A DNA stretch of 41,007 bases, taken from NCBI GenBank assembly GCA_035519355.1, contig DATIWM010000232.1, positions 1-41,007 on the forward strand, read 5' to 3'. Positions 2,226 through 39,968 of the stretch are shown here, piece after piece. A program made the position numbers and the translations under genes. Source of the DNA: Thermoanaerobaculia bacterium. GTDB lineage: Bacteria > Acidobacteriota > Thermoanaerobaculia > UBA5066. Positions within the stretch are counted from its first letter, which is position 1. Every line of letters begins with the position of its first letter. The notes beneath the pieces were generated by a model. That model had not been told where the DNA came from, searched no databases, and worked only from the letters and a program-made list of their open reading frames with translations.

Positions 2226-2238
2226 GGGCCGCCCCCCC

Positions 2239-3192: not shown

Positions 3193-3207
3193 CGGTCTCC
3201 TCCGTCC

Positions 3208-15200: not shown

Positions 15201-16470
15201 CGGCTCCTCCCGTCCGGGCCTGGCGCAAGAGCGCCGCGATGCCGGTCAGAGTGGCCGGCGCGAGCGCTCCCTGCGCGCCCGCGACGGGCTGTCCGTTCTC
15301 GTCCGTCACGCGTCCGGCCAGCGTGGCGCCGGGGACGAGCGGGGCGTCCAGCTTCTTCGCTTCGCCGAAGGCGATTTCGATGTTCTTCCGCATGAGGACG
15401 AATCGCGGCTCGTCGGCCTGAAAGCTCCATGCGCCCGGAGAGACCGACGCGAGGACGTACCGGCCATCCGGGCCGGAGCGGACCGTCAGCCGCCGGGCTT
15501 CCCGGCCGATGCTCACCCTGGCGCGCGGGACCGCCCGGAGCGTCTTCGCGTCGACGACGCGCCCTTCCAGCGAGGCCGGCCGCCCGAGCGGGACGGCGAC
15601 GCTTCTTCCTTCCGGGAGCGGGAGCACGAGACCGGTCACCTCGCCGAATCCCGCCTCTCCGGCGTCGGCCACGAGGCGGCCCTTTCCCTCCGGGGCATCC
15701 GGAATCGTGAAGGTCCCGTCCGGGCTGGTTACGACCCATCGGCTCTCGATGCGTCCTTCGAAGCGGACGACGGCTTCCGCGGCGCTCTTCCCGGGCACCG
15801 GCTTCACGGTGCCGGAGACGGCGACCCCGGGTGCGAGGACGACCGGCTCCCGAAGGGCGCCCGCCTTCGTCAGGGTCTCCGCGAAGGGCGCGTACCCGTT
15901 CTTTTCGACCCGGAGGAGGTTCGTCCCCTGGCTTCCCGCCGCGCCGCCGAGGCGGAAGGTGCCGTCCGCTTCCGTCATCGCCCGGGCCGGTGCGGCACCG
16001 AGATCCGGGTCCCCCGGCGTCGTCGCGAGGAGCGTGACCTCCGCTCCCGCCACCGGCTGCCCCTGCCGGTCGAGAACCGTCCCGGCCAACGGCTCGCCTA
16101 CCGCGAGGACGTGCTCGCCGAGATCGGCCGTCTCCGAAGCCTCGAAGACGCCATCGAACTCCACCGCTCGGACGCCGCCGCCCGCCGCACGGACGAGGAA
16201 AGTCCCCGGTGTTCCCCCGGGAACGGCCAGCGCGAACCGCCCGTCGGATCCGACCGTCGTGCTGGCGACCGGCTTGGGCTCCCCGCCCCCCCGGGCCTGC
16301 CGCCGGGCGGTGTCGAGAGGCGATTCGTAAGGGATGGCATAGACCGGGACTCCCGACGCCGGCTTCTGGTCGAGGACAAGACGCCCCCGGATTTCGCCGG
16401 CCAGGGCGGGAATTGCGGGCGGGACGAAGAAGACGACGAGCAGCGGAAGAGCGAAGCGGCGGACCGGCAT
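12259..16470 (-). CDS. Giant secreted protein (1403 aa) of about 14-15 tandem carboxypeptidase-regulatory-like (CarboxypepD_reg, Ig-like beta-sandwich) domains
   Basis: Track ORF 12259..16833 trimmed to the ATG at 16470 (MPVRRFALPLLVVFFVPPAIPALAGE, a signal peptide) with GGAGGGG about 12 nt upstream. The extension would overlap the divergent gene at 16541. The module start G-x-V-x-D-x-x-G-x-P-x-x-G-A-x-V recurs, for example LAGTVLDRQGQPVAGAEVTL, LAGRVTDENGQPVAGAQ, IAGVVRDKDGNPVEGAE, ISGRAVDAQSGQPLLDYAVS, LKGRVLDAISGGPVPNAAV and LGGTVVDAQASMPLPNAVV. No TonB-receptor barrel or catalytic domain is visible. Confidence 0.85.
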   Translation of the reverse strand: MPVRRFALPLLVVFFVPPAIPALAGEIRGRLVLDQKPASGVPVYAIPYESPLDTARRQARGGGEPKPVASTTVGSDGRFALAVPGGTPGTFLVRAAGGGVRAVEFDGVFEASETADLGEHVLAVGEPLAGTVLDRQGQPVAGAEVTLLATTPGDPDLGAAPARAMTEADGTFRLGGAAGSQGTNLLRVEKNGYAPFAETLTKAGALREPVVLAPGVAVSGTVKPVPGKSAAEAVVRFEGRIESRWVVTSPDGTFTIPDAPEGKGRLVADAGEAGFGEVTGLVLPLPEGRSVAVPLGRPASLEGRVVDAKTLRAVPRARVSIGREARRLTVRSGPDGRYVLASVSPGAWSFQADEPRFVLMRKNIEIAFGEAKKLDAPLVPGATLAGRVTDENGQPVAGAQGALAPATLTGIAALLRQARTGGAAPAFRTAADGTFRASRLAPSENQRLLVSHPEYAASTVGGINLLPGQTAASVAVVLHRGAVIAGVVRDKDGNPVEGAEADVQQGMNFRGGRGGAAAQIGGFPGSGGTRGRPAVRTGADGRFEARGFSPGDYTLWIKKSGYATERIDPVKVPESGSPEPLAVTLGPGAAITGLVRLRSGTPAGGWSVLASEAGTSAIGPRARGNMNPTGPDGLFILEGLKPGQPYDLQLFGGPGIGPSRKGVVPPADGVEVVVAAAGRISGRAVDAQSGQPLLDYAVSFEPERTGGGGAFRIVNRVAGQRLTGMGEKTEVRSEDGTFQLDDVPPGTWSVVVEAKGYQPARAGNVVVEEGATVRDVEVKASLGSALKGRVLDAISGGPVPNAAVTHGTAGTGRGGGPLAALANAASDEETTTDADGAFQLDGLAPGKVSLTVKHPDYSDATQTVDVKEGTATAEIRLTPGSALGGLVLSDAQQPLPGASVSLQSAGDAGFGRGMLGGGQSAVSDGSGRFRFDHLASGRYNLVASVQSRTSATQTIVLQDGQSRDDAVLQIATGATLQGVVSGIPDSLRSGMTVTASGADSFSATTRTAADGSFQFSGVPPGTATLRATTGNVATSSRSVLKQVEMPDGQPVVQTEIVFDSGYALSGHVARGGQPLPGVTVVANLIGGGGRQASSQTDGGGAYQMEGLTAGTYNIMAMANVLGGSTRSQQVTMSGDQNVDITFPSAKLGGTVVDAQASMPLPNAVVRIAPSDPNAASAGGRIAPSATTDSNGAFLITDLDPVSYTVNIQLQDYVFSKQSITAAEQGTDALTLQMSRGQGIGVIGRDGVFGVPLHGLMARVLDGNHAPVFTGSITLDGNGLGEIPSLPPGNYTLMASASGYAVATIPGITVPSASVTVSLTPGGSVEIHSGPKTLAAGTAQMQIVTSAGVPYPLNLFSAGGTFAVSTPVRQINNLAPGSYILAVTGGSQQSFAVREGGVAIVTLP

Positions 16471-16540
16471 CACGGGAGAACCCCTCCGTAGGAAGTATGG
16501 ACGCGGCAACCCGCCCGAAGGTTGCGGTCTAATCGCCGGG

Positions 16541-17449
16541 ATGCGGCGCTCGTACGCTCCCCCCGGCGACCGACTGAGCCTCGAGGCCGACGATCGCCGC
16601 CTCCACGATCTCGCGAGCCGTCTCTGGGATCCGGCGGACGAGGGGCCTGGCGCCATCGAGTTCCGGATCGAGTCGTTCGACGGAGCGCCACCCGACGAGG
16701 AGGCGGAGCGAGCGGTGACCTGGTCGAGAGTCCCGCAAGGCTTCCGGGTGGCCGCTCCGGGACTCGTCGACCTCCTGGTCGACCTCGGTGCCGCCCACGT
16801 CTCGGGACGCGTCTCGACGGGGCTCGTCTCCAAGGCGCCCGACCTCGCAGCCCGCTCGGTCCTCGAGGCTCCCGCGGCGGTCCTTCTCGGAGAGCGCGGA
16901 TGGCAGATCCTTCACGCCGGTGCGGCCGTCGGGGGGCGCGGCGCGGTGGTTCTCCGGGGTCCGGCCGGAGCCGGCAAGTCGACGCTCGTGGCCGCTCTTC
17001 GGGCCGCCGGGCTCTCCGTCCTCGCCGACGAAGGCCTCTTCGTTTCGCGGGACGACCCCGAGCGGCTCGCCGCATCCGTCCGGGACCTGACGCTGCTTCC
17101 GGAAAGCCTCTCCCTCCTCCGCTCGGACACCCCGACTCGCTTCGCGTTTTCGGGAGGCGAAGTCAAACGGCGGATCGACCTGTCCTCGGAGAGCGGGCCT
17201 CGCTTCCGTGAGGCGCGCCTCGCCGCCGCCGTCCTTCTCGGCAGACGGGACCGGGCCGGGGTCCGGCTCGTCCCCCTGTCGCCGGGAGAATTCGAGGAGG
17301 CCTTCCGGGCGGGCGAGATCTCCCGGGAGCGCGAAACCGGAGACGCCGGGTTCATTGCCCGTGCGTGGGGAGCCCGGGGAGGATATCGTCTCGACGGCGC
17401 CCGGGACCTCGCCGGGGCCGTGTCGATTCTCGAGGCGATCGTACGATAA
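16541..17449 (+). CDS. HPr kinase/phosphorylase C-terminal-domain-like P-loop protein (HprK-related kinase)
   Basis: 302 aa. The P-loop and following strand (VLRGPAGAGKSTLVAALRAAGLSVLADEGLFV, P-loop at 16958-16984) resemble the HprK G-x-S-G-x-GKS...L-x-ADD pattern. It is the first gene of the long plus-strand operon. Confidence 0.65.
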   Translation: MRRSYAPPGDRLSLEADDRRLHDLASRLWDPADEGPGAIEFRIESFDGAPPDEEAERAVTWSRVPQGFRVAAPGLVDLLVDLGAAHVSGRVSTGLVSKAPDLAARSVLEAPAAVLLGERGWQILHAGAAVGGRGAVVLRGPAGAGKSTLVAALRAAGLSVLADEGLFVSRDDPERLAASVRDLTLLPESLSLLRSDTPTRFAFSGGEVKRRIDLSSESGPRFREARLAAAVLLGRRDRAGVRLVPLSPGEFEEAFRAGEISRERETGDAGFIARAWGARGGYRLDGARDLAGAVSILEAIVR

Positions 17450-17450
17450 G

Positions 17451-18935
17451 ATGAGAACGGGTCTCATGCAGGCCGGCCGGCGCGTCCTCCTCGCCCACTC
17501 CTACTTCCTCGCCCACGACGAGAAACAGACGAGGAAGATGAAGCCCTATCCTCCGCTGGCGACGCTCCTCGCGGCGGCGCTCCTCCGAAAGACAGGCCGC
17601 GAGGTCCATCTCTTCGACGCGATGCTCTCGCCGGGAGAGGAGGAGTTCGAGCGGACCCTTCGCGCGGTGCGGCCCGACGTCGTGGCCCTCCTCGAGGACA
17701 ATTTCAACTTCCTGACGAAGATGTGCACGACCCGGATGCGGGAGGCGGCGGTCCGGATGATCGGCATGGCGAAGTCCGCCGGCTGCTTCGTCGCGGTCAA
17801 CGGCTCGGACATGTCGGACCATCCCGAGATCTACCTCGCGGCGGGCGCCGACGCCGTGATCCTGGGCGAGACCGAGCTGACCCTTCCCGAGCTGCTCGAC
17901 GGCCTCGCCTCCGAAGACCATCGTGATCTCCCGGGGATCGCCGGCCTCGCTCTTTCCGGGCCATCCGGGACCCTCTCGCGGACGGCCCGACGCCCGTTCG
18001 TGGAAGGCCTCGACGCCCTGCCGCTCCCGGCGTGGGATCTCGTCGACGCCGCCCGGTACCGGAAGGCCTGGATCGGCGCCCACGGCCGGTTCTCGTGGAA
18101 CGTCGTGACGACCCGCGGCTGCCCCTTCAGATGCAACTGGTGCGCGAAGCCGCTCTACGGGACACGTTACGCGCAGCGGAGCCCCGGCGCCGTCGCGGAC
18201 GAACTGGTCGCCCTGAGGCGCGCCGTCAACCCCGACCACGTCTGGTTCGCCGACGACATCTTCGGCCTGACGCCGAGCTGGATCGAGTCGTTCGCCGGGG
18301 AGATGGCGCTTCGCGGCATTCGGGTTCCGTTCACGATGCAGTCCCGCGTCGACCTGATGACCCCGTCGGCCGTCCAGGCCCTCGCCGCCTCCGGCTGCGA
18401 GGAGGTCTGGCTGGGGGTGGAGTCCGGCTCCCAGAGGATTCTCGACGCCATGGACAAGGGGACCCGCGTGGAGCAGGTCCGCCGCGCCACACGTCTCCTG
18501 CGGCTTCACGGAATCCGGGCGGCCTGGTTCCTCCAGCTCGGCTACCCCGGCGAGGAGTGGAAGGACCTTCTGGCCACGCGCGAACTTCTCCGTTCCGAGC
18601 GCCCCGACGACATCGGCGTCTCGGTCGCGTATCCGCTTCCCGGCACCCTGTTCCACGAGCGGGTGAAGGCGCAGCTCACCGCCCAGACGAACTGGAAGAA
18701 CACCGACGATCTCGCCATGCTGTTCGAAGGAACGTATTCGAGCAACTTCTACCGGCAGGTGAGGGACCTCCTCCACGCCGAGGCGTTCGCCTTCAAGGCG
18801 CCGCGTTCCGACCTCACCTCCGCCGGGATCGACGCCGCGTGGACCGATCTGGGACGCCAGGAGTCGGCGGACCGCGAACGGCGCGGCGGCCGGGGCGAAG
18901 ACGATGGCCTGCGGGTCGCCGCCGGCGGCTCTTGA
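17451..18935 (+). CDS. B12-binding-domain radical SAM protein (class B rSAM, methylase-like) 1
   Basis: Track ORF 17208..18935 trimmed to the ATG at 17451, 1 nt after the upstream stop. The N-terminal cobalamin-binding-type Rossmann region reads RVLLAHSYFL...YPPLATLLAAALLRKTGREVHLFD...VVALL. The rSAM cluster motif CPFRCNWC lies at 18120-18143, followed by GVESGSQRILDAMDKG. Confidence 0.85.
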   Translation: MRTGLMQAGRRVLLAHSYFLAHDEKQTRKMKPYPPLATLLAAALLRKTGREVHLFDAMLSPGEEEFERTLRAVRPDVVALLEDNFNFLTKMCTTRMREAAVRMIGMAKSAGCFVAVNGSDMSDHPEIYLAAGADAVILGETELTLPELLDGLASEDHRDLPGIAGLALSGPSGTLSRTARRPFVEGLDALPLPAWDLVDAARYRKAWIGAHGRFSWNVVTTRGCPFRCNWCAKPLYGTRYAQRSPGAVADELVALRRAVNPDHVWFADDIFGLTPSWIESFAGEMALRGIRVPFTMQSRVDLMTPSAVQALAASGCEEVWLGVESGSQRILDAMDKGTRVEQVRRATRLLRLHGIRAAWFLQLGYPGEEWKDLLATRELLRSERPDDIGVSVAYPLPGTLFHERVKAQLTAQTNWKNTDDLAMLFEGTYSSNFYRQVRDLLHAEAFAFKAPRSDLTSAGIDAAWTDLGRQESADRERRGGRGEDDGLRVAAGGS

Positions 18936-19756
18936 CGGCACCGGGCCTCTCTCCGGCCGTTCGTGCCTTCGACGCGGTGGCCGACGTTTTCGACGAGCGG
19001 TTCGGCGAGTGGGCGAGCGTCGCGTGCCAGCGCCGGGCCGTTCGCGCGGAGCTCCTGGCGGCCTTCCCCGAAGGCTTGCGGCTCCTGGAGCTGGGGGGAG
19101 GGACGGGCGAAGACGCGCTCTTTCTCGCGCGGCACGGCCGGAGAATCCTCGTGACGGACGGGGCTCCGAAGATGATCGAGAGGACGCGGCGAAAGACGGC
19201 CGGGGAAGGGCTCGGAGACCGGATCGAGGCCGAGGTCGTCGCCATCGAGGATCTCGAGGACTTCGCGTCGCGGCGCGCCGCCGAAGGCGCGCCGCCGTTC
19301 GCGGGCGCCTACTCGAATTTCGCGTCCCTCAACTGCGTCACCGATCTTCCGGCCGCCGGTCGGGCCCTCGCAGGCCTCCTCGCCCCCGGCAGCCGGGCCC
19401 TTCTCGTCGTCTTCGGACCGTGGGCTCCCGGCGAAATCGTGACGCTCCTCCTCCGCGGCCAGCCTCGGGCCGCGTTCCGGCGTTTCTCGCGGGGGCCCGT
19501 CTCCGCCCGGCTCGGGGGCCAGGAGTTCGGCGTCTCCTATCCGAGCCCGGCCGAATTCGCCCGCGCCCTCTCACCAGGGTTCCGGCTCCGGCGCGCCGTC
19601 GGCATCGGCGTCTTCGTTCCGCCCAGCTCCGCCGAGCCGGCGATCTCCCGATGGCCGCGGCTTCTCTCGGCCCTCGAGGCGCTCGACCGCGTCGTGGCGC
19701 GTCCGCTCTGGCGTCTCGGCGACCACGTCCTTCTCGATTTCGAGAGGGTGGAATGA
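18932..19756 (+). CDS. Class I SAM-dependent methyltransferase 1
   Basis: This is the 3' part of track ORF 18032..19756. The SAM-binding motif I is LLELGGGTGEDALFLARHGRRILVTDGAPKM. The likely start is TTG at 18932, overlapping the rSAM stop (TTGA). GTG at 18977 is an alternative. Confidence 0.75.
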   Translation: MTAPGLSPAVRAFDAVADVFDERFGEWASVACQRRAVRAELLAAFPEGLRLLELGGGTGEDALFLARHGRRILVTDGAPKMIERTRRKTAGEGLGDRIEAEVVAIEDLEDFASRRAAEGAPPFAGAYSNFASLNCVTDLPAAGRALAGLLAPGSRALLVVFGPWAPGEIVTLLLRGQPRAAFRRFSRGPVSARLGGQEFGVSYPSPAEFARALSPGFRLRRAVGIGVFVPPSSAEPAISRWPRLLSALEALDRVVARPLWRLGDHVLLDFERVE

Positions 19757-20559
19757 CCGGCTCGCCGTCGGCGCAGGAAAGATGGGAACGTGCTTACGCC
19801 GCTCTCCGGGATCGGGAAGGGCGGTCCGATCCGGAGGTCCGCCTCGCCCGGCCGTATCTGACGAAAGGCCCCCTGGCGGCTCAATGGCAGATCCGGGCGC
19901 GGACTTTCGACCGCTTCGTCGCCGCGGTCCTCGCCCCCCTCGAACGCGAGAGAGGACGGCCGCTCGGCATTCTCGATGTCGGTGCGGGCGACGGATGGCT
20001 CGCGGCCCGGATGGCGGGCCGCGGCCACCGCGCGGTCGCTCTCGACGTGAGGCTGGACGCCGTCGACGGCCTCGCGGCGGGCGCTCTCTTCACACGTCCG
20101 AGCGTGCGGCGCTTCGGCCGTGTCGCCGCCTCCTTCGAGGCCCTCCCGGTCCCCGGAGCGTCCTTCGACCTGGCCGTCTTCAACGCGTCGATCCACTACG
20201 CCGCCGACCTTCGGCGCGTCCTCTCCGAGGTGCGCCGCGCCGTCCGGAAAGGAGGGTGGATCGCCGTTCTCGACTCGCCGTTCTACGGAAGCGCGGAGGC
20301 GGGCGAGGCGATGGTGAGACAGAAGGAGCGGCGGACGCGCGAGACGCTTCCGGATCTCGCCGACGGACTTCTCGCGCTGCGGTCGATCGAGTACCTCACC
20401 CGGGAGCGGCTCGCCGCCGCGGCGGAGCCGTCGGACCTCGCGTTCCGCCGGATCCGCGTCCTCTACCCCCTCTCGTACGAGCTTCGGGGCCTTCAGGCCT
20501 TCCTTCACCGCGATCGGCCGCCCTCGCGATTCGACGTCTGGGTCGCGAGCGTCACGTGA
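19753..20559 (+). CDS. Class I SAM-dependent methyltransferase 2
   Basis: This is the 3' part of track ORF 18904..20559. ATG at 19753 overlaps the upstream stop (ATGA). Motif I is ILDVGAGDGWLAARMAGRGHRAVALD, with post-motifs FDLAVFNASIHY and GGWIAVLDSPFY. Confidence 0.8.
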   Translation: MTGSPSAQERWERAYAALRDREGRSDPEVRLARPYLTKGPLAAQWQIRARTFDRFVAAVLAPLERERGRPLGILDVGAGDGWLAARMAGRGHRAVALDVRLDAVDGLAAGALFTRPSVRRFGRVAASFEALPVPGASFDLAVFNASIHYAADLRRVLSEVRRAVRKGGWIAVLDSPFYGSAEAGEAMVRQKERRTRETLPDLADGLLALRSIEYLTRERLAAAAEPSDLAFRRIRVLYPLSYELRGLQAFLHRDRPPSRFDVWVASVT

Positions 20560-20566
20560 GCCACCC

Positions 20567-21931
20567 GTGATCCTCCTCGTCAACCCGCGGGCCACGAGGC
20601 CGAAGAACCGGCGCTTCCCTCTTTCGCTGATGGCGATCGGCGCCGCCCTGCCGGAGGACGTGCCCTGGAAAATCCTCGACGGGAATCTCCCGGACGCCGA
20701 TCCGTTCGCCGAGGCGGCGGGCGAGATCGAACGACGCCTCGGCACGGCGGATCCGGTCACCCTCGTGGCGATGACCGTCATGCCGGGACCCCAGCTGGTC
20801 GCGGCCGTCCCGATCGCGAGGCGACTGAAGGAGCGCTTCCCCGGAATCCCGGTCGTCTGGGGCGGCTACTTTCCGACGCTCTACCCCGGCCCCTGTCTGA
20901 AGGCGCCCTACGTGGACTGGGTCGTCCGCGGGCAGGGAGAACGGACGATCCGGGAGCTCCTCGACGTCCTGGCCGGGATGCGGACGGCGGAGACCGTCGC
21001 CGGCCTCGCCTGGAAGGACGGCGCGACGCCGCGGATCAACATCGAACGGCGATGGGAGGGCCCTGACGCGTTTCCCGACCCGCCGTACGGGAAGATCGAC
21101 GTCGAGACGTACCTCCATCCGACGCTCCTCGGCCGGCGGAATGCGGTCCATCACGCGTCGATCGGGTGCCCGTACACCTGCAACTTCTGCGGTGTCATCG
21201 CGGCTTTCGGGAGCCTCGAGAAGTTCGCCTCGCCGGCCCGGACGGAGGCCGTGCTCTCGTACCTCGTCAGAGCCCACGGTGTCGACGCGGTCCACTTCTA
21301 CGACAACAACTTCTTTCTGCGGGAAGAGTATGCGGAGGAGCTCTGCGGGCGGCTGATCCCCCTCGGCCTCCGCTGGTGGTGCGAGGCGCGGATCGACGTG
21401 ATGCTCCGCTACTCGGACCGGACCTGGGAGACGATCCGCCGCTCCGGCTGCGCGATGATCTTCTTCGGCGCCGAATCGGGCTCGGACGAGACGCTCCGGA
21501 GGATGTCGAAGAACCTGACCACGGCCGAGACGCTCGCGCTCGCGGAGAAGGCGAGGACGTTCGGCATCGTGCCGGAGTTCTCGTTCGTCTTCGGCGACCC
21601 GGACGATCCCGTCGGAGAAGCGGAGAAGACCCTCGCCTTCATCGGAAAACTGAAGGCGGTCAACCCGGCGATGAAGCTGATCACCTACTTCTACACCCCG
21701 ACGCCCCAGCGCCGGGGGACGTACGGAAACATCGATGCCCTCGCCGGAACACCCGAATCCCTCGAGGAGTGGGTGACGCCCGACTGGGTCGGATGGATGA
21801 CGCACGAGAGTCCGCCCGTGCCGTGGCTGACGCCGGAGCTGAAGGAGAGGATCGAGGCCTTCGCCGCCGGGTTCGGGCGCGGATCGCCCGCCGACCCCGA
21901 GGCCTACGGCCATCTGAGAGTCTCCCCGTGA
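20567..21931 (+). CDS. B12-binding-domain radical SAM protein (class B rSAM) 2
   Basis: 454 aa with GTG start. The N-terminal B12-type domain reads ILLVNPR...FPLSLMAIGAAL...VAMTVM. The rSAM motif CPYTCNFC lies at 21167-21190, followed by FGAESGSDETLRRMSK. It is clearly a paralog-type partner of 17451..18935 but divergent in sequence. Confidence 0.85.
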   Translation: MILLVNPRATRPKNRRFPLSLMAIGAALPEDVPWKILDGNLPDADPFAEAAGEIERRLGTADPVTLVAMTVMPGPQLVAAVPIARRLKERFPGIPVVWGGYFPTLYPGPCLKAPYVDWVVRGQGERTIRELLDVLAGMRTAETVAGLAWKDGATPRINIERRWEGPDAFPDPPYGKIDVETYLHPTLLGRRNAVHHASIGCPYTCNFCGVIAAFGSLEKFASPARTEAVLSYLVRAHGVDAVHFYDNNFFLREEYAEELCGRLIPLGLRWWCEARIDVMLRYSDRTWETIRRSGCAMIFFGAESGSDETLRRMSKNLTTAETLALAEKARTFGIVPEFSFVFGDPDDPVGEAEKTLAFIGKLKAVNPAMKLITYFYTPTPQRRGTYGNIDALAGTPESLEEWVTPDWVGWMTHESPPVPWLTPELKERIEAFAAGFGRGSPADPEAYGHLRVSP

Positions 21932-22620
21932 GCGGACGCGACGCCGCGGCGCTCCCCGCCGAGACGGCTTACCGTCTCTGGGCCGAAAGCTACGACGAGG
22001 AGAATCCGCTGACGACGCTCGACCATCGCGCGGCCGCGCTTCTGACGCCGCCGCTCGCCGGCCGGACGCTCCTCGACGCCGCGTGCGGGACCGCGCGCCG
22101 TCTGGCGTTCGGCGGGAGTGCCGGCCCACGGCTCGCCGCCGGCGTCGACCTCGTCTTCGAAATGCTGCGCCGGGGACGCACCGACAGAGCCCGCCGCCAG
22201 ACGACCGCCGCCGGCGATCTCCGTGCCCTGCCGCTGCGGTCTTCCCGATTCGACGTCGTCTGGTGCCGCCTCGCCGCCGGGCACCTTCCCCGGATCGCCC
22301 CCCTCTATCGCGAGCTGGCTCGGGTTCTCGCTCCCGGAGGGAGAGCGATCGTCACCGATTTCCACCCGGCCGCGGTCGCCGCCGGCCACCGCCGGCTCTT
22401 TCGCGACACCTCGGGGAAGAGCCATCTCGTGGCGCACGTCGTTCACGAGCCGGAGGCGCACGAGCGTGCGGCCGCCGCCGAGGGCCTTCTCCTCGAGAGC
22501 CGGATCGACCTCCCGATCGGAGAGGAGGTCCGCGTCTTCTTCGAGCGCGCCGGCGCCCTCTACTGGTACGAGCGCGATCGGGGTCTGCCGCTTCTCCTCG
22601 CCCTCCGATTCCGCCGATGA
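21928..22620 (+). CDS. Class I SAM-dependent methyltransferase 3
   Basis: This is the 3' part of track ORF 21166..22620. GTG at 21928 overlaps the upstream stop (GTGA). Motif I is LLDAACGTARRL, with later motifs FDVVWCRLAAGHL and LAPGGRAIVTDFHP. Confidence 0.7.
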   Translation: MSGRDAAALPAETAYRLWAESYDEENPLTTLDHRAAALLTPPLAGRTLLDAACGTARRLAFGGSAGPRLAAGVDLVFEMLRRGRTDRARRQTTAAGDLRALPLRSSRFDVVWCRLAAGHLPRIAPLYRELARVLAPGGRAIVTDFHPAAVAAGHRRLFRDTSGKSHLVAHVVHEPEAHERAAAAEGLLLESRIDLPIGEEVRVFFERAGALYWYERDRGLPLLLALRFRR

Positions 22621-23696
22621 AGCTCCGGCTCGTCACGAAAACGCGCACGATCGACGTGGCGGGGGACCGGATCGTGTCGCGAAGCGGCGAAGCGGACCTC
22701 GTGCTCGACGTCGGCGGGGCGGACCTCCGACCCGGGCTCGTGAATGCGCACGATCATCTCCACCGCAACCACCTCCCGCGCCTCGGCGAGCCGCCCTATG
22801 CGAGCGCCGCCGCCTGGGGAGCGGACCTCCATGCGCGTTTCGCCGACGACCTCGCGCGCCGGCGCCTGCTGCCGCGCCGCGACGCGCTGCTCTTCGGCGC
22901 TCTCAAGAACATCCTCGGCGGCGCGACCTGGGTCGTCCACCACGACCCGTGGGAAGACGAATTCGACCGGGACTTCCCCGTGCGGGTCGTGCGCATTCCG
23001 GCCGTGGACGCCCTCGACGACGCGACGGCCGCTCCGTCCACCGGTCCCTGGGCCCTTCACCTCGCGGAGGGTACCGACCCGAGATCCATCGTCGAGATCG
23101 ACGAGGCGGCGGCGCGCGGCCTCCTCTCGGACCGGCTGGTCGCGGTTCACCTCGTGGGCGCGGCCCCGTGGGGAGTCTCCCGGCTCGCAGCGGCCGGCTG
23201 CGCCGCTGTCTGGTGTCCGACCTCGAACCGATTCCTCTATGGAGCGACGGCTCCGCGGGCGCTCTTCGACTCCGGCGTCGACGTGCTCATCGGGACCGAC
23301 GCGCTCGTGAGCGCCGAGGGGACGCTCTTTGCGGAGCTCAAGGCCGCGCGCACACTCGGCTTTCTGTCGGACTCGCGGCTCGAGGAGGCGGTCGGCGGCA
23401 CGGCGAGGAGGCGGCTTCTTCTTCCGCCGCCGTCGCTCGAGCCGGGCGCGAGAGCGGACGTCATTGCGCTCGGTGCGCCGCTCCTCGAGGCGGCGCCGCG
23501 CGACGTCATGCTGGTGCTCACGGGCGGGCGGCCCGTCCTGGCGGACGAGAGGTATGCGGAAATCTTCGACGCCGCGGCCGTTCCACCGGAGGCTCTCACG
23601 GTCGGCGGTGTTCCGAAGCGCGTGGCCGCGCCGCTGGCTTCCGTCGCGCAGGCGGCCATCCGCCTCGCGCCCGAGTGCGGCCGTATCCTCCGCTGA
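22617..23696 (+). CDS. Amidohydrolase-superfamily protein, MtaD/chlorohydrolase-like (putative nucleoside/aminohydrolase deaminase)
   Basis: This is the 3' part of track ORF 22083..23696. ATG at 22617 overlaps the upstream stop (ATGA). It carries the metal-binding HxH (GLVNAHDHLH, from about 22737), ALHLAEG, VAVHLV, WCPTSNRFLYG and LIGTDALVS, which follow the MtaD/ATZ-TRZ family pattern. Confidence 0.7.
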   Translation: MKLRLVTKTRTIDVAGDRIVSRSGEADLVLDVGGADLRPGLVNAHDHLHRNHLPRLGEPPYASAAAWGADLHARFADDLARRRLLPRRDALLFGALKNILGGATWVVHHDPWEDEFDRDFPVRVVRIPAVDALDDATAAPSTGPWALHLAEGTDPRSIVEIDEAAARGLLSDRLVAVHLVGAAPWGVSRLAAAGCAAVWCPTSNRFLYGATAPRALFDSGVDVLIGTDALVSAEGTLFAELKAARTLGFLSDSRLEEAVGGTARRRLLLPPPSLEPGARADVIALGAPLLEAAPRDVMLVLTGGRPVLADERYAEIFDAAAVPPEALTVGGVPKRVAAPLASVAQAAIRLAPECGRILR

Positions 23697-23700
23697 ACAG

Positions 23701-25293
23701 ATGGACCTCGGCCGGCGGCCCCCTGGCCCCCACCTCGTCGTCGCGACTCTGCTCGCGCTGTTTGTCGGCTTCTCTCTCCGCGACCTCGGCCGGGCGCCGA
23801 AGGTCTACGAGGACGAGCCGGTGATTGCAGCGCCGGGATACATGCTCGTGACGACAGGCGTCTTCGGAAACCCTCTCCAGCGCGGCTTCTTCGGGAGCGA
23901 GCGGCACTGTTACGAGTTCATGCCGGTCTTCCCGATTCTCGACGGGGCGTCGATGCGGCTCTTCGGGACGGGGCTTTTCGCGGTCCGGATCGTCGCCCTG
24001 GGGCTCGCGGCGGGAGTGCTTCTGCTGACACATCGCATCGCGTCGAGGATTCTCTCGGCCGCGCACGGTGCGACGGCGGTCGCCCTTCTCGTTCTCGCGC
24101 CGGTCATGTCTCCCGTGGAGCACCTCCGAACGGGGATCCCGATGGTGGATCTCGCGCGCCTCGCGCGCTACGACGTGGCGGTGTCTCTGTTCGGTCTCGC
24201 GGCGCTCTTCGTCCTGGCGCCCGTCCTCGAAGAAGGGGCTGCGCCGGGCGCGGGACGGCTCTTCGCAGTGGGGATCCTCACCGGCGCGGCCACGCTGAGC
24301 CATCTCTACGGAGTCTTCTGGCTGCCGGCTCTCCTGCTGGCGATCCTCGCCACGCGGGGACAGCGCGTCCTCCGGCGGGCGTGCGTCGTCTCCGGCGCGG
24401 GGTTCCTGCTCGCGCTCCTCCCCTGGATCCTCTTCGTCGCATCGGGATGGTCCGACTTTCTCGCGCAGAACCGCCACTACGGCGAGAGGTTCGACCTTCT
24501 CGACTCACGCTTCTACGCCTCGAACCTCCGCGGAGAGATCGCCCGGTACGGGCTCATCCTGGCCGCGGCGACCCGGCACCTGGCGCCCGTGCTTTTCGCC
24601 GCATCGGGGCTGGCCGGCGTCGTCCTTCTCGTCCGGCGCAGCCGCTCCGGGGATCGCGCGTCGCGGGCGCTCCTCGTGATTCCGGGTCTCATCGGCCTCC
24701 TCTTCGCCCTTCTCCTCCAGTCCAAGAACGTGATGTATCTCGCGACGCTCTGGCCGCTCTTTGCGCTCGTGGCCTCGCTGGGCCTTCACGTGGCCTGGGG
24801 GCACGGACGGCTCGCCCGGTCCTTCCTCGTCGCGGCCGGCCTCCTCGTCGCCGGCGAGGGGATCTTCTCCCTGCGGCGCTTCTCTCTGGAGGCGGCGGTC
24901 ATGACGCCCTACGGCGACTTCACCTCGAGACTCTCGGGTCTGGTGCCGGGCGGCACGCGCGTCATGGGCATGCAGCACTGGTGGCTCGGCCTCGTCCGGA
25001 CCTCGCCGGATTACGTGACCGTGCCTTTTCCGGGCATGCTCCGCCGCTACACGCCGGAGCCCGTCCGCTTCGAGGAGGCCACGGACGCGCTGGCTCCGCG
25101 AGTTCTCCTGCTCGACGAGATCCTGCGCGGATTTCTCCGCGCGAACGTTCGGGTCGACTCCGAGTTCCACGATCTGGCCGTGGCCATGCAGGGCTGGCTG
25201 GCGGTGAGAGGCGTGAGCGTGGGGGCGGTGGAAGATCCGACATACGGCCGCGTCGAGGTCTACGCCATTCGGCCCGGCGTGCTGTCAAAATGA
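23701..25293 (+). CDS. Polytopic membrane glycosyltransferase, GT-C fold (ArnT/PMT, GT39/83-like)
   Basis: Track ORF 23329..25293 trimmed to the ATG at 23701. There are about 10-12 hydrophobic helices. An acidic first-loop motif (VYEDEPVIAAPGY) follows TM1, as in GT-C enzymes. The C-terminal soluble domain is about 150 aa. Confidence 0.7.
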   Translation: MDLGRRPPGPHLVVATLLALFVGFSLRDLGRAPKVYEDEPVIAAPGYMLVTTGVFGNPLQRGFFGSERHCYEFMPVFPILDGASMRLFGTGLFAVRIVALGLAAGVLLLTHRIASRILSAAHGATAVALLVLAPVMSPVEHLRTGIPMVDLARLARYDVAVSLFGLAALFVLAPVLEEGAAPGAGRLFAVGILTGAATLSHLYGVFWLPALLLAILATRGQRVLRRACVVSGAGFLLALLPWILFVASGWSDFLAQNRHYGERFDLLDSRFYASNLRGEIARYGLILAAATRHLAPVLFAASGLAGVVLLVRRSRSGDRASRALLVIPGLIGLLFALLLQSKNVMYLATLWPLFALVASLGLHVAWGHGRLARSFLVAAGLLVAGEGIFSLRRFSLEAAVMTPYGDFTSRLSGLVPGGTRVMGMQHWWLGLVRTSPDYVTVPFPGMLRRYTPEPVRFEEATDALAPRVLLLDEILRGFLRANVRVDSEFHDLAVAMQGWLAVRGVSVGAVEDPTYGRVEVYAIRPGVLSK

Positions 25294-25324
25294 AGAGCGA
25301 AGAGAGGCAAGGGAGGGAGACCCG

Positions 25325-26125
25325 GTGAGTTCGGCGGCTGGAGAGACCCCCGCGCCTGGGCCCTCGTTCTTTGACGACATCGCGAGGGACTACGACGCCC
25401 AGATGTCCCGCGTGCCGGGCGATCTCTGGATGCGCGAGGCGTTCCAGGAATTCGTGATCCGCGGGCTCGCTCCGGGGGAGGTCGTGCTGGATTTCGGCTG
25501 CGGCACGGGCGTCGACGCCCGGGTCTACTCCGAGCGGGGGTTCCGGGTGATCGGATACGACTCCTCGGTGGCGATGACGCAGGTGGCGGCGAATCGCTGC
25601 GGGACCGGCATCGGCGGAAACCTCGTCGAGATCTTCAGCGGCCCGTACGAAGAGTTCCTGGGGAGACCCTGGTCGAGGACCCCACCGTCCGCCATCGTCT
25701 CGAACTTCGCGGTCCTGAATCTCGTCCCCTCGCTTCGCGCCGCCTTCGCGCGCTTTCACGAGATCCTTCAGCCGGGCGGGAGCGTCTTTCTGAGCCTTCT
25801 CAACCCCTGTTACGTCCGGAATCTCGTGACCCCCGGGCTCCGGCGTCTCTTCTTTCGGGCCCTCCGGCACGGGATCACGGAGTTCCCTTCGGCGAAGGTT
25901 CCGACGCTCCTCTACCGCGAGCGCTTCGTGAGGCAGGCGGCGGAACCGTTTTTCGCGCTGGACCTTCGGGCCGGGGTCGGCGCCGTCGTGAACCACGCGG
26001 CGATCGCCGGATCGTGGCGCGAGCCCCGGGGGTGGCGAGAACGGATCGAGCACCGGTTCTCCTCCACGCGCGTCCTGGCCGGCGCCGGCAAGTTCACGTT
26101 CCTGAAGCTTCGAAGGCGCGGGTGA
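25325..26125 (+). CDS. Class I SAM-dependent methyltransferase 4
   Basis: GTG start with GGGAGGGAG upstream. Motif I is VLDFGCGTGVDARVYSERGFRVIGYDSS, with later motifs IVSNFAVLNLV and LQPGGSVFLSLLNP. Confidence 0.8.
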   Translation: MSSAAGETPAPGPSFFDDIARDYDAQMSRVPGDLWMREAFQEFVIRGLAPGEVVLDFGCGTGVDARVYSERGFRVIGYDSSVAMTQVAANRCGTGIGGNLVEIFSGPYEEFLGRPWSRTPPSAIVSNFAVLNLVPSLRAAFARFHEILQPGGSVFLSLLNPCYVRNLVTPGLRRLFFRALRHGITEFPSAKVPTLLYRERFVRQAAEPFFALDLRAGVGAVVNHAAIAGSWREPRGWRERIEHRFSSTRVLAGAGKFTFLKLRRRG

Positions 26126-26168
26126 AGGAATCCCGGAGTCCCACGCGACCCTCGCGGCACCCCGAGCC

Positions 26169-27140
26169 ATGAAAGAGGCCCTCAAACGGCTGATCTTCGG
26201 AGCGCACCGGATATCGCAGTGGTGCGCCGTCGGCGTCCAGGACCCTTCCCGTCTCTTTCGCCTCTCCCTCGAAGACGGGACGCTCTCCGTCGACGTGACC
26301 GAGACGAGCTCGGTGGCCGCCTTGCGGCCCGTGACGTTGGCGATCCGCACCGGGGACCGAATTCCCCGGTACGCCCTCGAGAGCAGCCGGTTCGTCCTGA
26401 AGGTACGCCCCTCGGCGGCCGACGACTGGGTGGGCGAGATCACTCTTCGTTACCTGAGGGACGTGAGGACGGACGTGGCGGGAATCTCCCTCTTCACGGT
26501 CGCTTCTCACCGGAACCGCTCCCTTCCGCCGGTGACCTATCTCCGCTTCCGCCTCCGGCAGCGGTGGGAGATTTTCCGTGACAAGACGCCCTACAACTTC
26601 CGGATGATCCCCTCGGAACTCTTTGCGCTCTACGTCTTCTACTACGTCCCCCGGCCGGTCTATCTCGTTTCCGTGGCGTTCGAGGGGGCGTCCAACATCT
26701 TCCCGATGGACCTCGTCGGCCGAATGGGGGACGACCTGTTCCTTCTGGCCCTGCGGAGCACGAGCCCCGCGATCCGGCTCATGACGGGCTCGAAGCGCCT
26801 CGCGCTGACGGCCGTGCCGTTCGAGGAGAAGGACGTGGCCTACCGGCTCGGTACGCACCACAAGAAGGAGACGATCGACTGGGACACGCTTCCCTTTCGA
26901 GGGATCCCGTCCCCTCACTTCGGCCTTCAGGTCCCGGCCTCGGCGCTCGGCCTTCGCGAGGTCGAGGTCGTGACGACCGACGTGGTGAGCACCCACGTTC
27001 TCTTCGTCACGAGGATCGTCCGCGACGAGAGGTGGCGGGAGGGCCGGCAGCTCTGCCACATCCCCGGCATCCTGCGCGAGGTCCTCACGGGCGCCTCCCC
27101 GTCCCTGGCCGCGGGCCACGAAATCGACGGGCTTTCATGA
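26169..27140 (+). CDS. Hypothetical protein; C-terminal half resembles a flavin-reductase-like FMN-binding split-barrel domain
   Basis: 323 aa with protein-like composition. Residues about 150-300 (VSVAFEGASNIFPMDLVG...LALRSTSPAIRLM...ALGLREVEVVTTDVVSTHVLFVTRIVRDE) match my recollection of the Flavin_Reduct (PF01613) layout. The N-terminal 140 aa are unrecognised. Confidence 0.45.
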   Translation: MKEALKRLIFGAHRISQWCAVGVQDPSRLFRLSLEDGTLSVDVTETSSVAALRPVTLAIRTGDRIPRYALESSRFVLKVRPSAADDWVGEITLRYLRDVRTDVAGISLFTVASHRNRSLPPVTYLRFRLRQRWEIFRDKTPYNFRMIPSELFALYVFYYVPRPVYLVSVAFEGASNIFPMDLVGRMGDDLFLLALRSTSPAIRLMTGSKRLALTAVPFEEKDVAYRLGTHHKKETIDWDTLPFRGIPSPHFGLQVPASALGLREVEVVTTDVVSTHVLFVTRIVRDERWREGRQLCHIPGILREVLTGASPSLAAGHEIDGLS

Positions 27141-28187
27141 CCCGCGCATCAGCTCCCGGGACCTCCGGAAGACCTCGTCGACGCTGACCCGCATCAGACA
27201 GAGAAGGTCTTCCCGGCCGCAGACGGGCTGCAGACAGGCGCCGCATTCGAGATCCTCACTGTAGAAGCCTGCGGCGTTCGGCCCTTCCGGACGGCTCCAC
27301 GAGGAGCGGCTCGAGCCGAAGAGGGCCAGAGTCGGCACGCCCTGCACCCAGGCGAGGTGCATCAGTCCCGAATCGTCACTGACGACGAGCGACGCCAGAG
27401 ACATGACGGCGAGCGCGACGGCCGGGGTCGTGGCGCCCGCAAGATCAAGAAGACTCTCCCCCAGGGCCTCGCGCAGCGCGACGAAGCGTGGCGGCACGGG
27501 GGTGGCGGCGAGCGACATGAGCTGGCACCCCTCTCGTTCGAGGCGGCGCCCGAGCTCCACGTAGCGCTCGAGGGGCCATTGCTTCGTCTTCCACCCTCCG
27601 GCCGGATTGAGGCAGACGAGGGGCCGCGCCTCATCCCGTCCGGCTCCCGCGAGAAGCTCGCGCGCCTCGGCGAGCGGCCCCGGCTTCACGTGCGATGCGA
27701 GCACGGGATCGAGTCGTCCCAGGCCGATCCACTCGGCCGCATCGAGGTACCGTGTCAGCGCGGTCCGGGGCGCGTGCCGGTCGAAGCCGACCCAGGCTCC
27801 GGGCGCGAGAAGCCGCGTCAGGAAGCGCGACCAGCGGTTGCGCTGAAGGTCGAGGACGGCCGGGACGCGGTGCCGTCGCAGCGCGAGCGCGACGCGGAGG
27901 ATGGAAAGTCCCTTGGGGATCTTCGGGCGGCGCGCGTCGATCGAAAAGACGGAGTCGACGTCCCGGTGGGCGGCGAAGAGCTCCCGGGAGCGGACATCGG
28001 TCACGACGTCGATTCGGGCTTCCGGGAGTCGGCGCCGAAGCGCGGCGATCAGCGGCAACGTGATGGCCGTGTCGCCGAACGCGTGAAGGCGGATGACGAC
28101 GAGCCGCCCCGGATCCGACGTCCCCGCGAGCGGAACGCCGATCAGTCCGTCGGGGCTGAAGGGAGGGACGGGGAACGGCCCGGACAT
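27135..28187 (-). CDS. Glycosyltransferase family 9 (heptosyltransferase-like, RfaF/WaaC type)
   Basis: Track ORF 27135..28337 trimmed to the ATG at 28187 (MSGPFPV...). The GT9 N-terminal signature is LVVIRLHAFGDTAITLPLIAALRRRLPEARIDVVT, with C-terminal VVSDDSGLMHLAWVQGVPTLALFG. It overlaps the preceding convergent gene by 6 nt. Confidence 0.8.
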   Translation of the reverse strand: MSGPFPVPPFSPDGLIGVPLAGTSDPGRLVVIRLHAFGDTAITLPLIAALRRRLPEARIDVVTDVRSRELFAAHRDVDSVFSIDARRPKIPKGLSILRVALALRRHRVPAVLDLQRNRWSRFLTRLLAPGAWVGFDRHAPRTALTRYLDAAEWIGLGRLDPVLASHVKPGPLAEARELLAGAGRDEARPLVCLNPAGGWKTKQWPLERYVELGRRLEREGCQLMSLAATPVPPRFVALREALGESLLDLAGATTPAVALAVMSLASLVVSDDSGLMHLAWVQGVPTLALFGSSRSSWSRPEGPNAAGFYSEDLECGACLQPVCGREDLLCLMRVSVDEVFRRSRELMRGS

Positions 28188-28233
28188 CGCGGGGAATGCT
28201 ACGCGCGCAGGCCGCGGATTGTTACGATGGTGC

Positions 28234-31766: not shown

Positions 31767-31778
31767 CGCCCGGAAAGG

Positions 31779-33068: not shown

Positions 33069-33152
33069 GCGGTCTCCTTCATGTCGGCGACGCCCGGGAT
33101 CTTCCGGGGCGCCGCGGGCCGCGTCAACCGCCCGCCGCCTCCCGAGGAGGCC

Positions 33153-33437
33153 TCAGCGGCGCTCGCGGCCGACCAGCCAGCCGACGAGAAGGCCGACGAC
33201 GAGGGCTCCGATCGCCATCACGAAAGCGTTCTCGCGGCCCGCCCGGTCCACCGTCCGCCAGCGCCGCTGCAGCTCCCTCCGGACCTTCCGGCCGCGGGCC
33301 TGGGCGCTCTCCAGGGCCTCCTCGACGCGGTCGGCGATGACCTCCGCCAGCTCGCCGCCGCGCCCTTCGGCGTCCTTCAACCCGTCGCGAACCGATCCGA
33401 GAATGTCACGTCCCATGGAAAACCTCTCGGAAAGCAT
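33153..33437 (-). CDS. Small tail-anchored membrane protein, DUF883/ElaB-YqjD-like or YtxH-like
   Basis: 94 aa with ATG at 33437 and GGGAGGG about 7 nt upstream. A charged helical N-terminus is followed by a single C-terminal TM helix (AFVMAIGALVVGLLVGWLVG) ending RERR. Confidence 0.55.
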   Translation of the reverse strand: MLSERFSMGRDILGSVRDGLKDAEGRGGELAEVIADRVEEALESAQARGRKVRRELQRRWRTVDRAGRENAFVMAIGALVVGLLVGWLVGRERR

Positions 33438-33471
33438 CTTACGCCCTCCCTTCCGATAGACTTCGCCCGCT

Positions 33472-39950: not shown

Positions 39951-39968
39951 GCCGCCGCCGTCCGCCGG

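Follow-up and report, generated by a model that had tools for sequence, protein, structure and literature searches.

A conserved cassette of two B12-binding radical SAM enzymes, methyltransferases and a hydrolase in Acidobacteriota and two other phyla, with a possible role in tailoring a surface glycan

What might be modified by an operon that combines two B12-binding radical S-adenosylmethionine (rSAM) enzymes with four further SAM-dependent methyltransferases and a hydrolase? The question is raised by positions 16541-27140 of a 41,007-nucleotide stretch of DNA from a Thermoanaerobaculia bacterium (contig DATIWM010000232.1 of assembly GCA_035519355.1; the whole stretch is hereafter the window), where an earlier reading of the sequence alone, the original prediction, had proposed a ten-gene, translationally coupled operon without a recognisable pathway. 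Class B rSAM enzymes, to which these two belong, carry out some of the hardest methylations in biology, and nearly all characterised examples come from antibiotic, cofactor, lipid and ribosomally synthesised and post-translationally modified peptide (RiPP) pathways. We find that genes g2 to g7 of this operon form a core of fixed order in three phyla, a tailoring cluster in which known enzyme families occur in an undescribed, widely conserved combination. In our judgement there is an even chance that this uncharacterised cassette adds several methyl groups to a sugar or phospho-sugar unit within a surface glycoconjugate, the window holding its acidobacterial version.

The operon and its conserved core

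The window has a GC content of 71%, and its raw lists of open reading frames (ORFs) are swamped by spurious frames. Genes were called from a third-position GC (GC3) frame plot and a GC3-based gene caller, which gave ten consecutive forward-strand coding sequences (CDSs) at 16541-27140. These genes, with the neighbours that enter the argument, are as follows.

12259-16473, reverse strand: secreted CarboxypepD_reg-repeat protein of 1404 amino acids (aa), divergent from g1, with signal peptide MPVRRFALPLLVVFFVPPAIPALA and at least 11 repeats
16541-17449, forward strand: g1, P-loop phosphotransferase of the PEPCK/HprK superfamily, 302 aa, assigned from its Walker A motif GPAGAGKST and an AlphaFold2 (AF2) model
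17451 (or 17466)-18935, forward strand: g2, core, class B rSAM enzyme 1 with a B12-binding domain (PF02310 40.2 bits, PF04055 62.6 bits)
18932-19756, forward strand: g3, core, class I SAM methyltransferase (Methyltransf_23/25; motif I LLELGGGTG)
19753-20559, forward strand: g4, core, class I SAM methyltransferase (Methyltransf_11, 55.7 bits)
20567-21931, forward strand: g5, core, class B rSAM enzyme 2 (PF02310 43.4 bits, PF04055 46.3 bits)
21928-22620, forward strand: g6, core, class I SAM methyltransferase (Methyltransf_11, 55.6 bits)
22617-23696, forward strand: g7, core, Zn amidohydrolase of the COG0402 deaminase/chlorohydrolase type, 359 aa, assigned from active-site residues and fold
23701-25293, forward strand: g8, accessory, GT-C-like polytopic membrane protein inserted between g7 and g9, tentatively assigned from transmembrane (TM) and motif analysis
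25325-26125, forward strand: g9, accessory, class I SAM methyltransferase (Methyltransf_23, 57.9 bits)
26169-27140, forward strand: g10, accessory, protein with a C-terminal flavin-reductase-like domain (PF01613, 29.1 bits against a cut-off of 27, residues 159-285)
27135-28187, reverse strand: glycosyltransferase of the GT9 (heptosyltransferase) family, an acidobacterial accessory (PF01075, 84 bits)
28234-29352, forward strand: GT4 glycosyltransferase, a frequent partner of the cassette in all three phyla (Glycos_transf_1, 99 bits)
29331-31766, reverse strand: single 811-aa ORF joining NTP_transf_5 (PF14907, 75 bits), a Gly/Trp (G/W)-repeat and a GT2-like domain
31779-33068, reverse strand: transporter of the major facilitator superfamily (MFS), possible exporter, specific to the window (MFS_1, 113 bits)

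The gaps from g1 to g10 are, in order, 1, -4, -4, 7, -4, -4, 4, 31 and 43 nt. All of the junctions quoted in the original prediction were located (TAAGATG at 17447-17453, TTGA at 18932, ATGA at 19753, GTGA at 21928 and ATGA at 22617), and translation verified the rSAM motifs CPFRCNWC (18120-18143, g2) and CPYTCNFC (21167-21190, g5). The packed operon structure stands, although at its last two junctions the genes are separated by short gaps (31 and 43 nt) instead of being translationally coupled. No sigma-70-like promoter was found within the operon, and the 6 terminator-like matches in it, against 5.8 +/- 2.5 expected by chance, all lie within CDSs. A compositional island was set aside, the GC content and GC3 of the operon being equal to those of its flanks. 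No tRNA or integration-site signal was found, no Rfam match that would point to a riboswitch or other RNA regulation appeared in the window or in five other loci, and a tblastn search of PLSDB with g5 for plasmid carriage gave no match at E <= 1e-40. An anti-phage defence system was likewise rejected, PADLOC having no match for g1, g2, g5, g7, g8, g10 or the NTP_transf_5 fusion.

Scanning 185,579 species genomes, one per species, confirmed 184 copies of g5, which occurs in at least 184 species-level genomes. Eighty loci were fetched and compared by tblastn and protein clustering; neighbourhood counts refer to the 49 loci of at least 17 kb, and presence counts for the core to 48 long loci. The hosts are Acidobacteriota (Thermoanaerobaculia), Gemmatimonadota (Longimicrobiales and Gemmatimonadales) and Alphaproteobacteria, with complete copies in the cultured strains Sphingomonas kyeonggiensis DS2008, Sphingomonas sp. 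JC676 and UNC305MFCol5.2, and Caulobacter sp. S45 and BK020. The nearest relative, with 87% g5 identity, is the metagenome-assembled genome (MAG) MFD01872.bin.1.224 (Acidobacteriota/Thermoanaerobaculia). Relatives at 87%, 70% and 64% g5 identity have the same gene order, and the order of g2-g7 (rSAM, methyltransferase, methyltransferase, rSAM, methyltransferase, hydrolase) is constant throughout the three phyla, the single genes being present in 47 (g2), 45 (g3), 41 (g4), 48 (g5), 43 (g6) and 42 (g7) of the 48 long loci. Because the same gene order recurs in relatives and across the 80 genome loci, the grouping goes beyond chance. The ten genes had been proposed as one unit, and for g2-g7 this is borne out by a conserved core of fixed order, whereas g8, g9 and g10 are accessory, occurring in 2, 5 and 6 of the 49 loci, respectively. 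Nor does the ten-gene span enclose the full system, the steadiest partners lying beyond it (NTP_transf_5 at 29331-31766, GT4 at 28234-29352 and GT9 at 27135-28187).

Those partners are of a consistent kind. An HprK-like P-loop protein stands beside the core in 34 of the 49 loci (homologues of g1 in two sub-families, F10 and F6) and NTP_transf_5 in 33; at least one of the two is present in 44 loci and both in 23. Some glycosyltransferase is found in 38 loci, GT4 in 29 and GT2-like in 17, and polysaccharide assembly or export genes in 14. Pfam verified Wzx (Polysacc_synt), Wzy_C, Wzi, CapD-type Polysacc_synt_2 and GT4 in loci of Longimicrobiales, Gemmatimonadales, Caulobacter and Sphingomonas, and the Gemmatimonadota, Caulobacter and Sphingomonas loci also hold Wza, a Wzc-like protein, an initiating sugar transferase and ABC exporters.

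Some loci carry further genes. An additional SPASM-domain rSAM is encoded in 9 of the 49, and four variant clusters (L007 6577-9041, L017 11374-16000, L055 6174-9850 and L072 14273-15385) hold an additional SPASM rSAM or a third B12-binding rSAM, or both, the best partial match of the latter being HpnJ (124 bits). The extra rSAMs suggest expanded versions of the same chemistry. In the Sphingomonas loci (L084 13382-14946, with equivalents in L073, L081 and L057) the cassette is followed by an OmpL-like beta-barrel porin and a small plastocyanin-like cupredoxin, about 79 aa as called.

No characterised pathway corresponds to the cassette, as had been anticipated: no NCBIfam equivalog attained as much as a quarter of its cut-off, no PADLOC model applied, and no published cluster was found. 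Our literature search, which covered the gene combination, B12-rSAM methylases of branched glycerol dialkyl glycerol tetraethers (brGDGTs) and B12-rSAMs in polysaccharide loci, returned no matching characterised cluster.

Enzymes of the core and accessory genes

Pfam and NCBIfam profiles, Foldseek structure comparison, and motif and TM analysis upheld the family calls of the original prediction at the superfamily level, the membrane protein g8 being GT-C-like. In g2 and g5 an N-terminal B12-binding domain is followed by a CxxxCxxC rSAM core, the class B domain order, and their PF02310 and PF04055 scores all exceed the Pfam cut-offs. The two proteins are 29% identical to each other. The best-conserved gene of the core is g5, with 60-89% identity across the three phyla; its family comprises more than 100 protein clusters at 62-89% identity, and its cysteine triad C201/C205/C208 is invariant among homologues. 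Neither protein reached the cut-off of an NCBIfam class B subfamily (BchE, HpnJ, HpnR, PhpK, ApyD, QCMT, BzaD, AprD4 or the ladderane-lipid rSAM). The top score was to BchE in both cases (119 bits for g2 and 99 bits for g5, against 481), the other subfamily scores were lower relative to their cut-offs of 251-750 bits, and all amounted to at most a quarter of any cut-off. The best PDB sequence matches of g2 and g5 are AprD4 (6fd2), TokK (7kdx) and 9ccb. Each of g2 and g5 forms a highly conserved family of its own. They resemble the class B methylases GenK, Fom3, TokK and HpnP/HpnR in the order of their domains, but their context, with three methyltransferases, a COG0402 hydrolase, a kinase, a nucleotidyltransferase and glycosyltransferases, has been described for none of those enzymes.

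The methyltransferases g3, g4, g6 and g9 are generic class I enzymes by profile, and the view that they are mutually divergent proved correct, with at most 27% identity (g3/g9) and no significant alignment between the other pairs.

The hydrolase g7 can be placed more closely. Residues H45 and H47 (HxH), H148 and E151 (HxxE), H178 and D228 are invariant in 20 homologues, and an AF2 model (pLDDT 94.5) has a TIM-barrel fold. Its top Foldseek matches all lie within the COG0402 deaminase/chlorohydrolase group: AtzA, deaminases of the methylthioadenosine (MTA), S-adenosylhomocysteine (SAH) and 5'-deoxyadenosine type (4dzh, 4dyk, 4gbd and 4f0r) and isocytosine deaminase, with a query-normalised TM-score (TMq) of 0.63-0.69. 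Fold and metal and catalytic residues assign g7 to this group; the best PDB sequence match is DR_0824 (2imr), and no equivalog-level NCBIfam match was found. A NagA-type sugar deacetylase was considered and set aside, motifs and fold placing g7 with the COG0402 deaminases. While g7 shares its fold and its HxH/HxxE/H/D residues with Tm0936, DR_0824, PA3170-type enzymes and AtzA, it differs from them in being only about 18% identical and some 80-100 residues shorter, and in its genetic coupling to a methyltransferase, which is not known for those enzymes. Among the 48 long loci, g6 and g7 are both present in 41 and both absent from 4, with 3 discordant, and they are adjacent in 33 of the 41. Additionally, in a Gemmatimonadales MAG (L004/L025, 12057-13826) a single protein of 589-600 aa joins an amidohydrolase of the g7 type with a class I methyltransferase resembling g9, a Rosetta-stone arrangement which indicates that the hydrolase acts jointly with a methyltransferase.

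The accessory genes are less constant. In g8 the PMT_2 score of 21.9 bits lies under the 26.1-bit cut-off; the protein has about 10-11 TM segments and a soluble C-terminal domain, no PDB sequence match, and an acidic first-loop motif (YEDE/HEDE) that a 40%-identical homologue in L008 also conserves. The closest relative (L001/L005) lacks g8 and has g9 immediately after g7, and for this reason we regard g8 as a local insertion. The earlier idea that a GT-C enzyme handles the scaffold at the membrane consequently does not describe a conserved feature of the system, g8 being confined to the two loci noted above. The protein g10, previously called an orphan, is not one, since its Flavin_Reduct (PF01613) match exceeds the cut-off; it also matches flavoredoxin 1usc weakly, and its N-terminal 150 residues carry no family assignment. 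The MFS gene and the NTP_transf_5 fusion share a strand, with the MFS gene 12 nt upstream, and no homologue of the transporter was found in other cassette loci.

Kinase-like, nucleotidyltransferase and sugar-transfer genes beside the core

The kinase-like g1 is recognised by fold. Its sequence matches are weak (TIGR04352 HprK_rel_A at 33.1 bits against a cut-off of 200; AAA_16), it does not reach the cut-offs of the HPr kinase and HprK-related families TIGR00679, TIGR04352 and TIGR04355, and it has no Pfam Hpr_kinase_C match. The homologous family F6 scores 22 bits against 33.3 for Hpr_kinase_C and 35.9 bits against 200 for TIGR04355. The AF2 model of g1 (pLDDT 93.5) has phosphoenolpyruvate (PEP) carboxykinases as all of its top 50 Foldseek PDB matches, with probabilities of 0.97-1.00 and TMq up to 0.52. 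The best structural matches are ATP-dependent PEP carboxykinases at TMq of about 0.5, in a superfamily that includes HPr kinase. With its invariant Walker A motif GPAGAGKST, g1 belongs at fold level to the PEPCK/HprK P-loop superfamily.

The 811-aa ORF was mapped by blastp against the split genes of L005, L002, L010 and L026, and consists of three parts: NTP_transf_5 in residues 1-400, with its GDID motif at 137, the G/W-repeat in residues 410-495 and the GT2-like domain in residues 503-810. Because NTP_transf_5 is fused to a GT2-like domain in the window, the nucleotidyltransferase is tied to glycosyl transfer. Neither Pfam nor NCBIfam has a match for the G/W-repeat module, which is about 90 aa long (GGVFESGVMLGGLFRSGTFRGGVFWGGVWLGG is one example). 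In Thermoanaerobaculia it also stands free, directly upstream of GT2-like genes (L002 13129-13410 and 15314-15610; L010 13158-13439), and in the window it is fused between NTP_transf_5 and the GT2-like domain (29331-31766, reverse strand). The GT4 of the window is partially similar to EpsE-type exopolysaccharide GT4 enzymes and has homologues at 41-90% identity, and the GT9 has homologues at 65-87% identity in 7 of the 12 long acidobacterial loci.

A kinase paired with a nucleotidyltransferase is known from peptide modification. In pseudomycoidin an HprK-like kinase was shown to phosphorylate Ser, and a nucleoside triphosphate (NTP) transferase is required for placing a hexose on the phosphate (PMC6993621). 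The LPP RiPPs are defined by a kinase/NTP-transferase pair and lie within capsule loci, where they are accompanied by a RiPP recognition element (RRE), a protease resembling signal peptidase and precursors 35-200 aa long (PMC13381572). A PF14907 transferase with a DxD motif co-located with a kinase, by which such RiPP systems are recognised, is present in the window. The cassette loci resemble the modules of paeninodin-type lasso peptides and LPP systems (PsmK/PsmN and LppK/LppN) in combining a P-loop HprK-superfamily protein with a DxD-bearing PF14907 protein, and in being rich in glycosyltransferase and capsule genes, sometimes with an MsbA-like ABC exporter. In contrast, the precursor peptide with its YxxPxL-type leader, RRE, leader peptidase and macrolactam synthetase of those modules were not found at cassette loci, while the two class B rSAMs, three or four methyltransferases and deaminase-like hydrolase of the cassette are undescribed in them. 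Their hosts are Bacillota, whereas the cassette hosts are Acidobacteriota, Gemmatimonadota and Alphaproteobacteria, and g1 is only distantly HprK-like (33 bits).

The other flanking genes of the window have housekeeping roles, namely mfd, surA-like genes and those that open the division/cell-wall (dcw) cluster, at 1-3621 on the reverse strand.

3208-3621, reverse strand: mraZ
2239-3192, reverse strand: rsmH/mraW
1803-2225, reverse strand: FtsL-like ORF, 140 aa
1-1713, reverse strand: penicillin-binding protein transpeptidase, running off the end of the window

GC content dips locally to about 0.62 at 39400-39970, around a 74-aa ORF (39726-39950, forward strand) between a Ser/Thr kinase-tetratricopeptide repeat gene and a melibiase-like gene. 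A stop-free forward-strand ORF of 2147 aa (27357-33800) runs across four real genes, of which three are read from the reverse strand and the fourth in a different forward frame. It is a high-GC artefact, and for that reason long ORFs are no evidence of genes in this sequence.

Candidate substrates of the cassette

Since the cassette adjoins kinase, nucleotidyltransferase and sugar-transfer genes in three phyla, a surface sugar polymer is its most likely substrate. Of the substrates first suggested, a glycan gives the best fit to the conserved neighbourhood, a lipid is unsupported, and a peptide lacks a precursor and an RRE. What is directly seen is gene order, the conserved core, co-occurrence, folds and catalytic motifs; substrate class, methylase chemistry, the sequence of the steps and the parts played by g7 and g10 are our reading of them. 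On that reading the two class B rSAMs would act on unactivated carbons, C-methylation being the likeliest outcome, and the class I enzymes g3, g4 and g6 would add O- or N-methyl groups. Together with its partner g6, g7 may carry out a hydrolytic, deamination-type step coupled to methylation; alternatively, it may clear SAH or 5'-deoxyadenosine, inhibitory by-products of the six SAM-consuming enzymes. The co-variation of g6 and g7 and the methyltransferase fusion fit both of these roles. The g1 kinase, NTP_transf_5 and the GT4, GT2-like and GT9 enzymes would phosphorylate the sugar or phospho-sugar unit under modification, activate it and attach it, and by analogy the chemistry of the kinase/NTP-transferase pair (phosphorylation of a hydroxyl, then a hexose on the phosphate; PMC6993621) would count for a glycan. 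Additions specific to the window may be a periplasmic transfer step by the GT-C-like g8, one further methylation by g9, a supply of electrons by the flavin-reductase-like g10, and possibly export by the MFS transporter.

Wzx/Wzy-dependent surface-polysaccharide loci with sugar-tailoring genes are among the closest known systems. Related cassette loci resemble them in Wzx, Wzy_C, Wza, Wzc-like protein, Wzi, initiating transferase, CapD-type dehydratase and GT4/GT2 enzymes, whereas the window itself lacks Wzx, Wzy and Wza, and polysaccharide loci of this kind are not recognised as including radical SAM/B12 enzymes. Other B12-rSAM families have reportedly been noted near oligosaccharide genes by NCBIfam/TIGRFAM curators, which, if so, would be an annotation-level precedent for the context. 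That the cassette is the first system for cobalamin-dependent rSAM C-methylation of a surface glycan or phospho-glycan is a further and more tentative proposal, which we think somewhat more apt to fail than to hold: it would be a mobile "hyper-methylation" cassette, with two radical and three polar methylations and one step coupled to deamination, that works with a kinase to nucleotidyltransferase to glycosyltransferase module, is horizontally transferred among three phyla and produces a branched, poly-methylated sugar not yet described in these bacteria. A 2026 review of B12-dependent rSAMs never mentions polysaccharides.

Several points weigh against a glycan substrate or against the pathway drawn for it. 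The sole characterised HprK-like/NTP_transf_5 pairs target peptides (PMC6993621; PMC13381572). Enzymes of the COG0402 group normally use heteroaromatic amidines (nucleobases, triazines and pterins) and not sugars. Because the class B relatives of g2 and g5 include BchE, HpnJ and AprD4, which are not methylases, methylase chemistry is only inferred for g2 and g5, and the installation of up to six methyl groups on one scaffold, as originally suggested, is pure inference. Genes for Wzx, Wzy, Wza and an initiating phosphoglycosyl transferase, missing from the window, occur within 10 kb of the core in only 14 of the 49 loci, and the neighbourhood counts are themselves approximate, as the GC3-based caller mis-calls some genes. 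Glycosyltransferase genes are common in bacterial genomes, and their co-location alone is weak evidence. Finally, every step of the pathway is a proposal.

A peptide or protein substrate keeps its place among the candidates because of the HprK-like/NTP-transferase pair, although on balance we consider it unlikely. The kinase would then act on Ser of a substrate encoded elsewhere, NTP_transf_5 and the glycosyltransferases would build a phospho-glycan on it, and the rSAMs and methyltransferases would methylate side chains or the glycan, as in a RiPP-like pathway or protein glycosylation. The pair is a known peptide-modifying one in the paeninodin and pseudomycoidin lasso peptides and in the LPP RiPPs, the latter in capsule loci, and the additional SPASM-domain rSAM of 9 loci would suit such a role; g1, however, scores only 33 bits against the 200 of HprK_rel_A. 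Both core rSAMs partially match RiPP enzymes (ApyD at 91-96 bits, rSAM_ocin_1 at about 70 bits), but these scores are far under the cut-offs of 750 and 282 bits. A candidate acceptor could be the secreted giant repeat protein (1404 aa in the window) that divergently adjoins the cassette in most acidobacterial loci, with homologues of 47-79% identity in the same position in most of the long ones; its adjacency could also be simply lineage synteny, and the protein is absent from the Gemmatimonadota and Alphaproteobacteria loci. The parts expected of a RiPP system did not appear: a discrete RRE/PqqD, a small ORF with a leader, a lasso cyclase and a leader peptidase were all missing from the loci, and PqqD/RRE was absent from the precomputed Pfam matches of three loci. 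When 2,087 small ORFs taken from 81 loci were clustered all against all, no conserved small ORF that could be a precursor emerged; nothing but antisense artefacts, a cupredoxin family and the G/W-repeat family F19 was recovered, and inspection of the intergenic gaps found no recurrent coding-like ORF. The 93-aa F19 was rejected as a precursor, being fused to the GT2-like enzyme in the window, L005 and L026 and lying directly upstream of that enzyme elsewhere; this only repeated small protein is a domain or subunit of the GT2-like enzyme. F27, a small ORF of Sphingomonas loci, was rejected as well, being a cupredoxin. The missing parts weaken a peptide reading, even though the substrate could be encoded elsewhere.

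Quite improbable, in our estimate, is a soluble small-molecule product or cofactor, perhaps one containing a nucleobase, whose scaffold would be multiply methylated, deaminated, phosphorylated, nucleotidylated and glycosylated, the polysaccharide genes being unrelated neighbours. The known substrates of the deaminase group of g7 (purine, pyrimidine and triazine rings and adenine nucleosides) speak for it, a kinase followed by a nucleotidyltransferase is the typical order of small-molecule activation, as in the logic of LicA/LicC, an MFS or ABC exporter is often close by, and 60-89% identity across phyla suggests one fixed small substrate. No scaffold-forming enzyme, however, is conserved with the cassette (nonribosomal peptide synthetase, polyketide synthase, terpene synthase, PEP mutase or amino-acid ligase), glycosyltransferases are its steadiest partners after the kinase and nucleotidyltransferase, and envelope glycans are suggested both by the fusion of NTP_transf_5 with a GT2-like domain and by the Wzx/Wzy/Wza contexts. 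Modification of a membrane lipid, whether methylation of branched-chain or brGDGT-type lipids or tailoring of hopanoids or lipid head groups, is highly improbable. Acidobacteriota are a known source of brGDGTs, GT-C and sulfatase/LtaS-type genes act at the membrane, and the rSAMs are partially similar to HpnJ, HpnR and the ladderane-associated lipid rSAM (54-107 bits), but all of these scores are far under the cut-offs of 360-650 bits and the neighbourhood conserves no gene for fatty acids, ether lipids, glycerol, squalene or hopanoids. A cassette that is common to Sphingomonas and Caulobacter yet rare (184 of 185,579 species genomes) is also a poor fit to a general membrane-lipid trait, and nothing comparable is listed in a 2026 review of rSAM enzymes that modify lipids.

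If tailoring of a surface glycan is the function of the cassette, its envelope-glycan context would open a new substrate class for class B rSAM enzymes. It would also imply that lineages abundant in soil and freshwater (Thermoanaerobaculia, Gemmatimonadota, Sphingomonas and Caulobacter) bear a heavily methylated surface structure that has so far gone unrecognised. Because complete copies of the cassette exist in cultured strains, its function is directly testable. Furthermore, the cassette extends the HprK-like/NTP_transf_5 pair beyond the RiPPs of Bacillota and may help to define the actual role of that pair.

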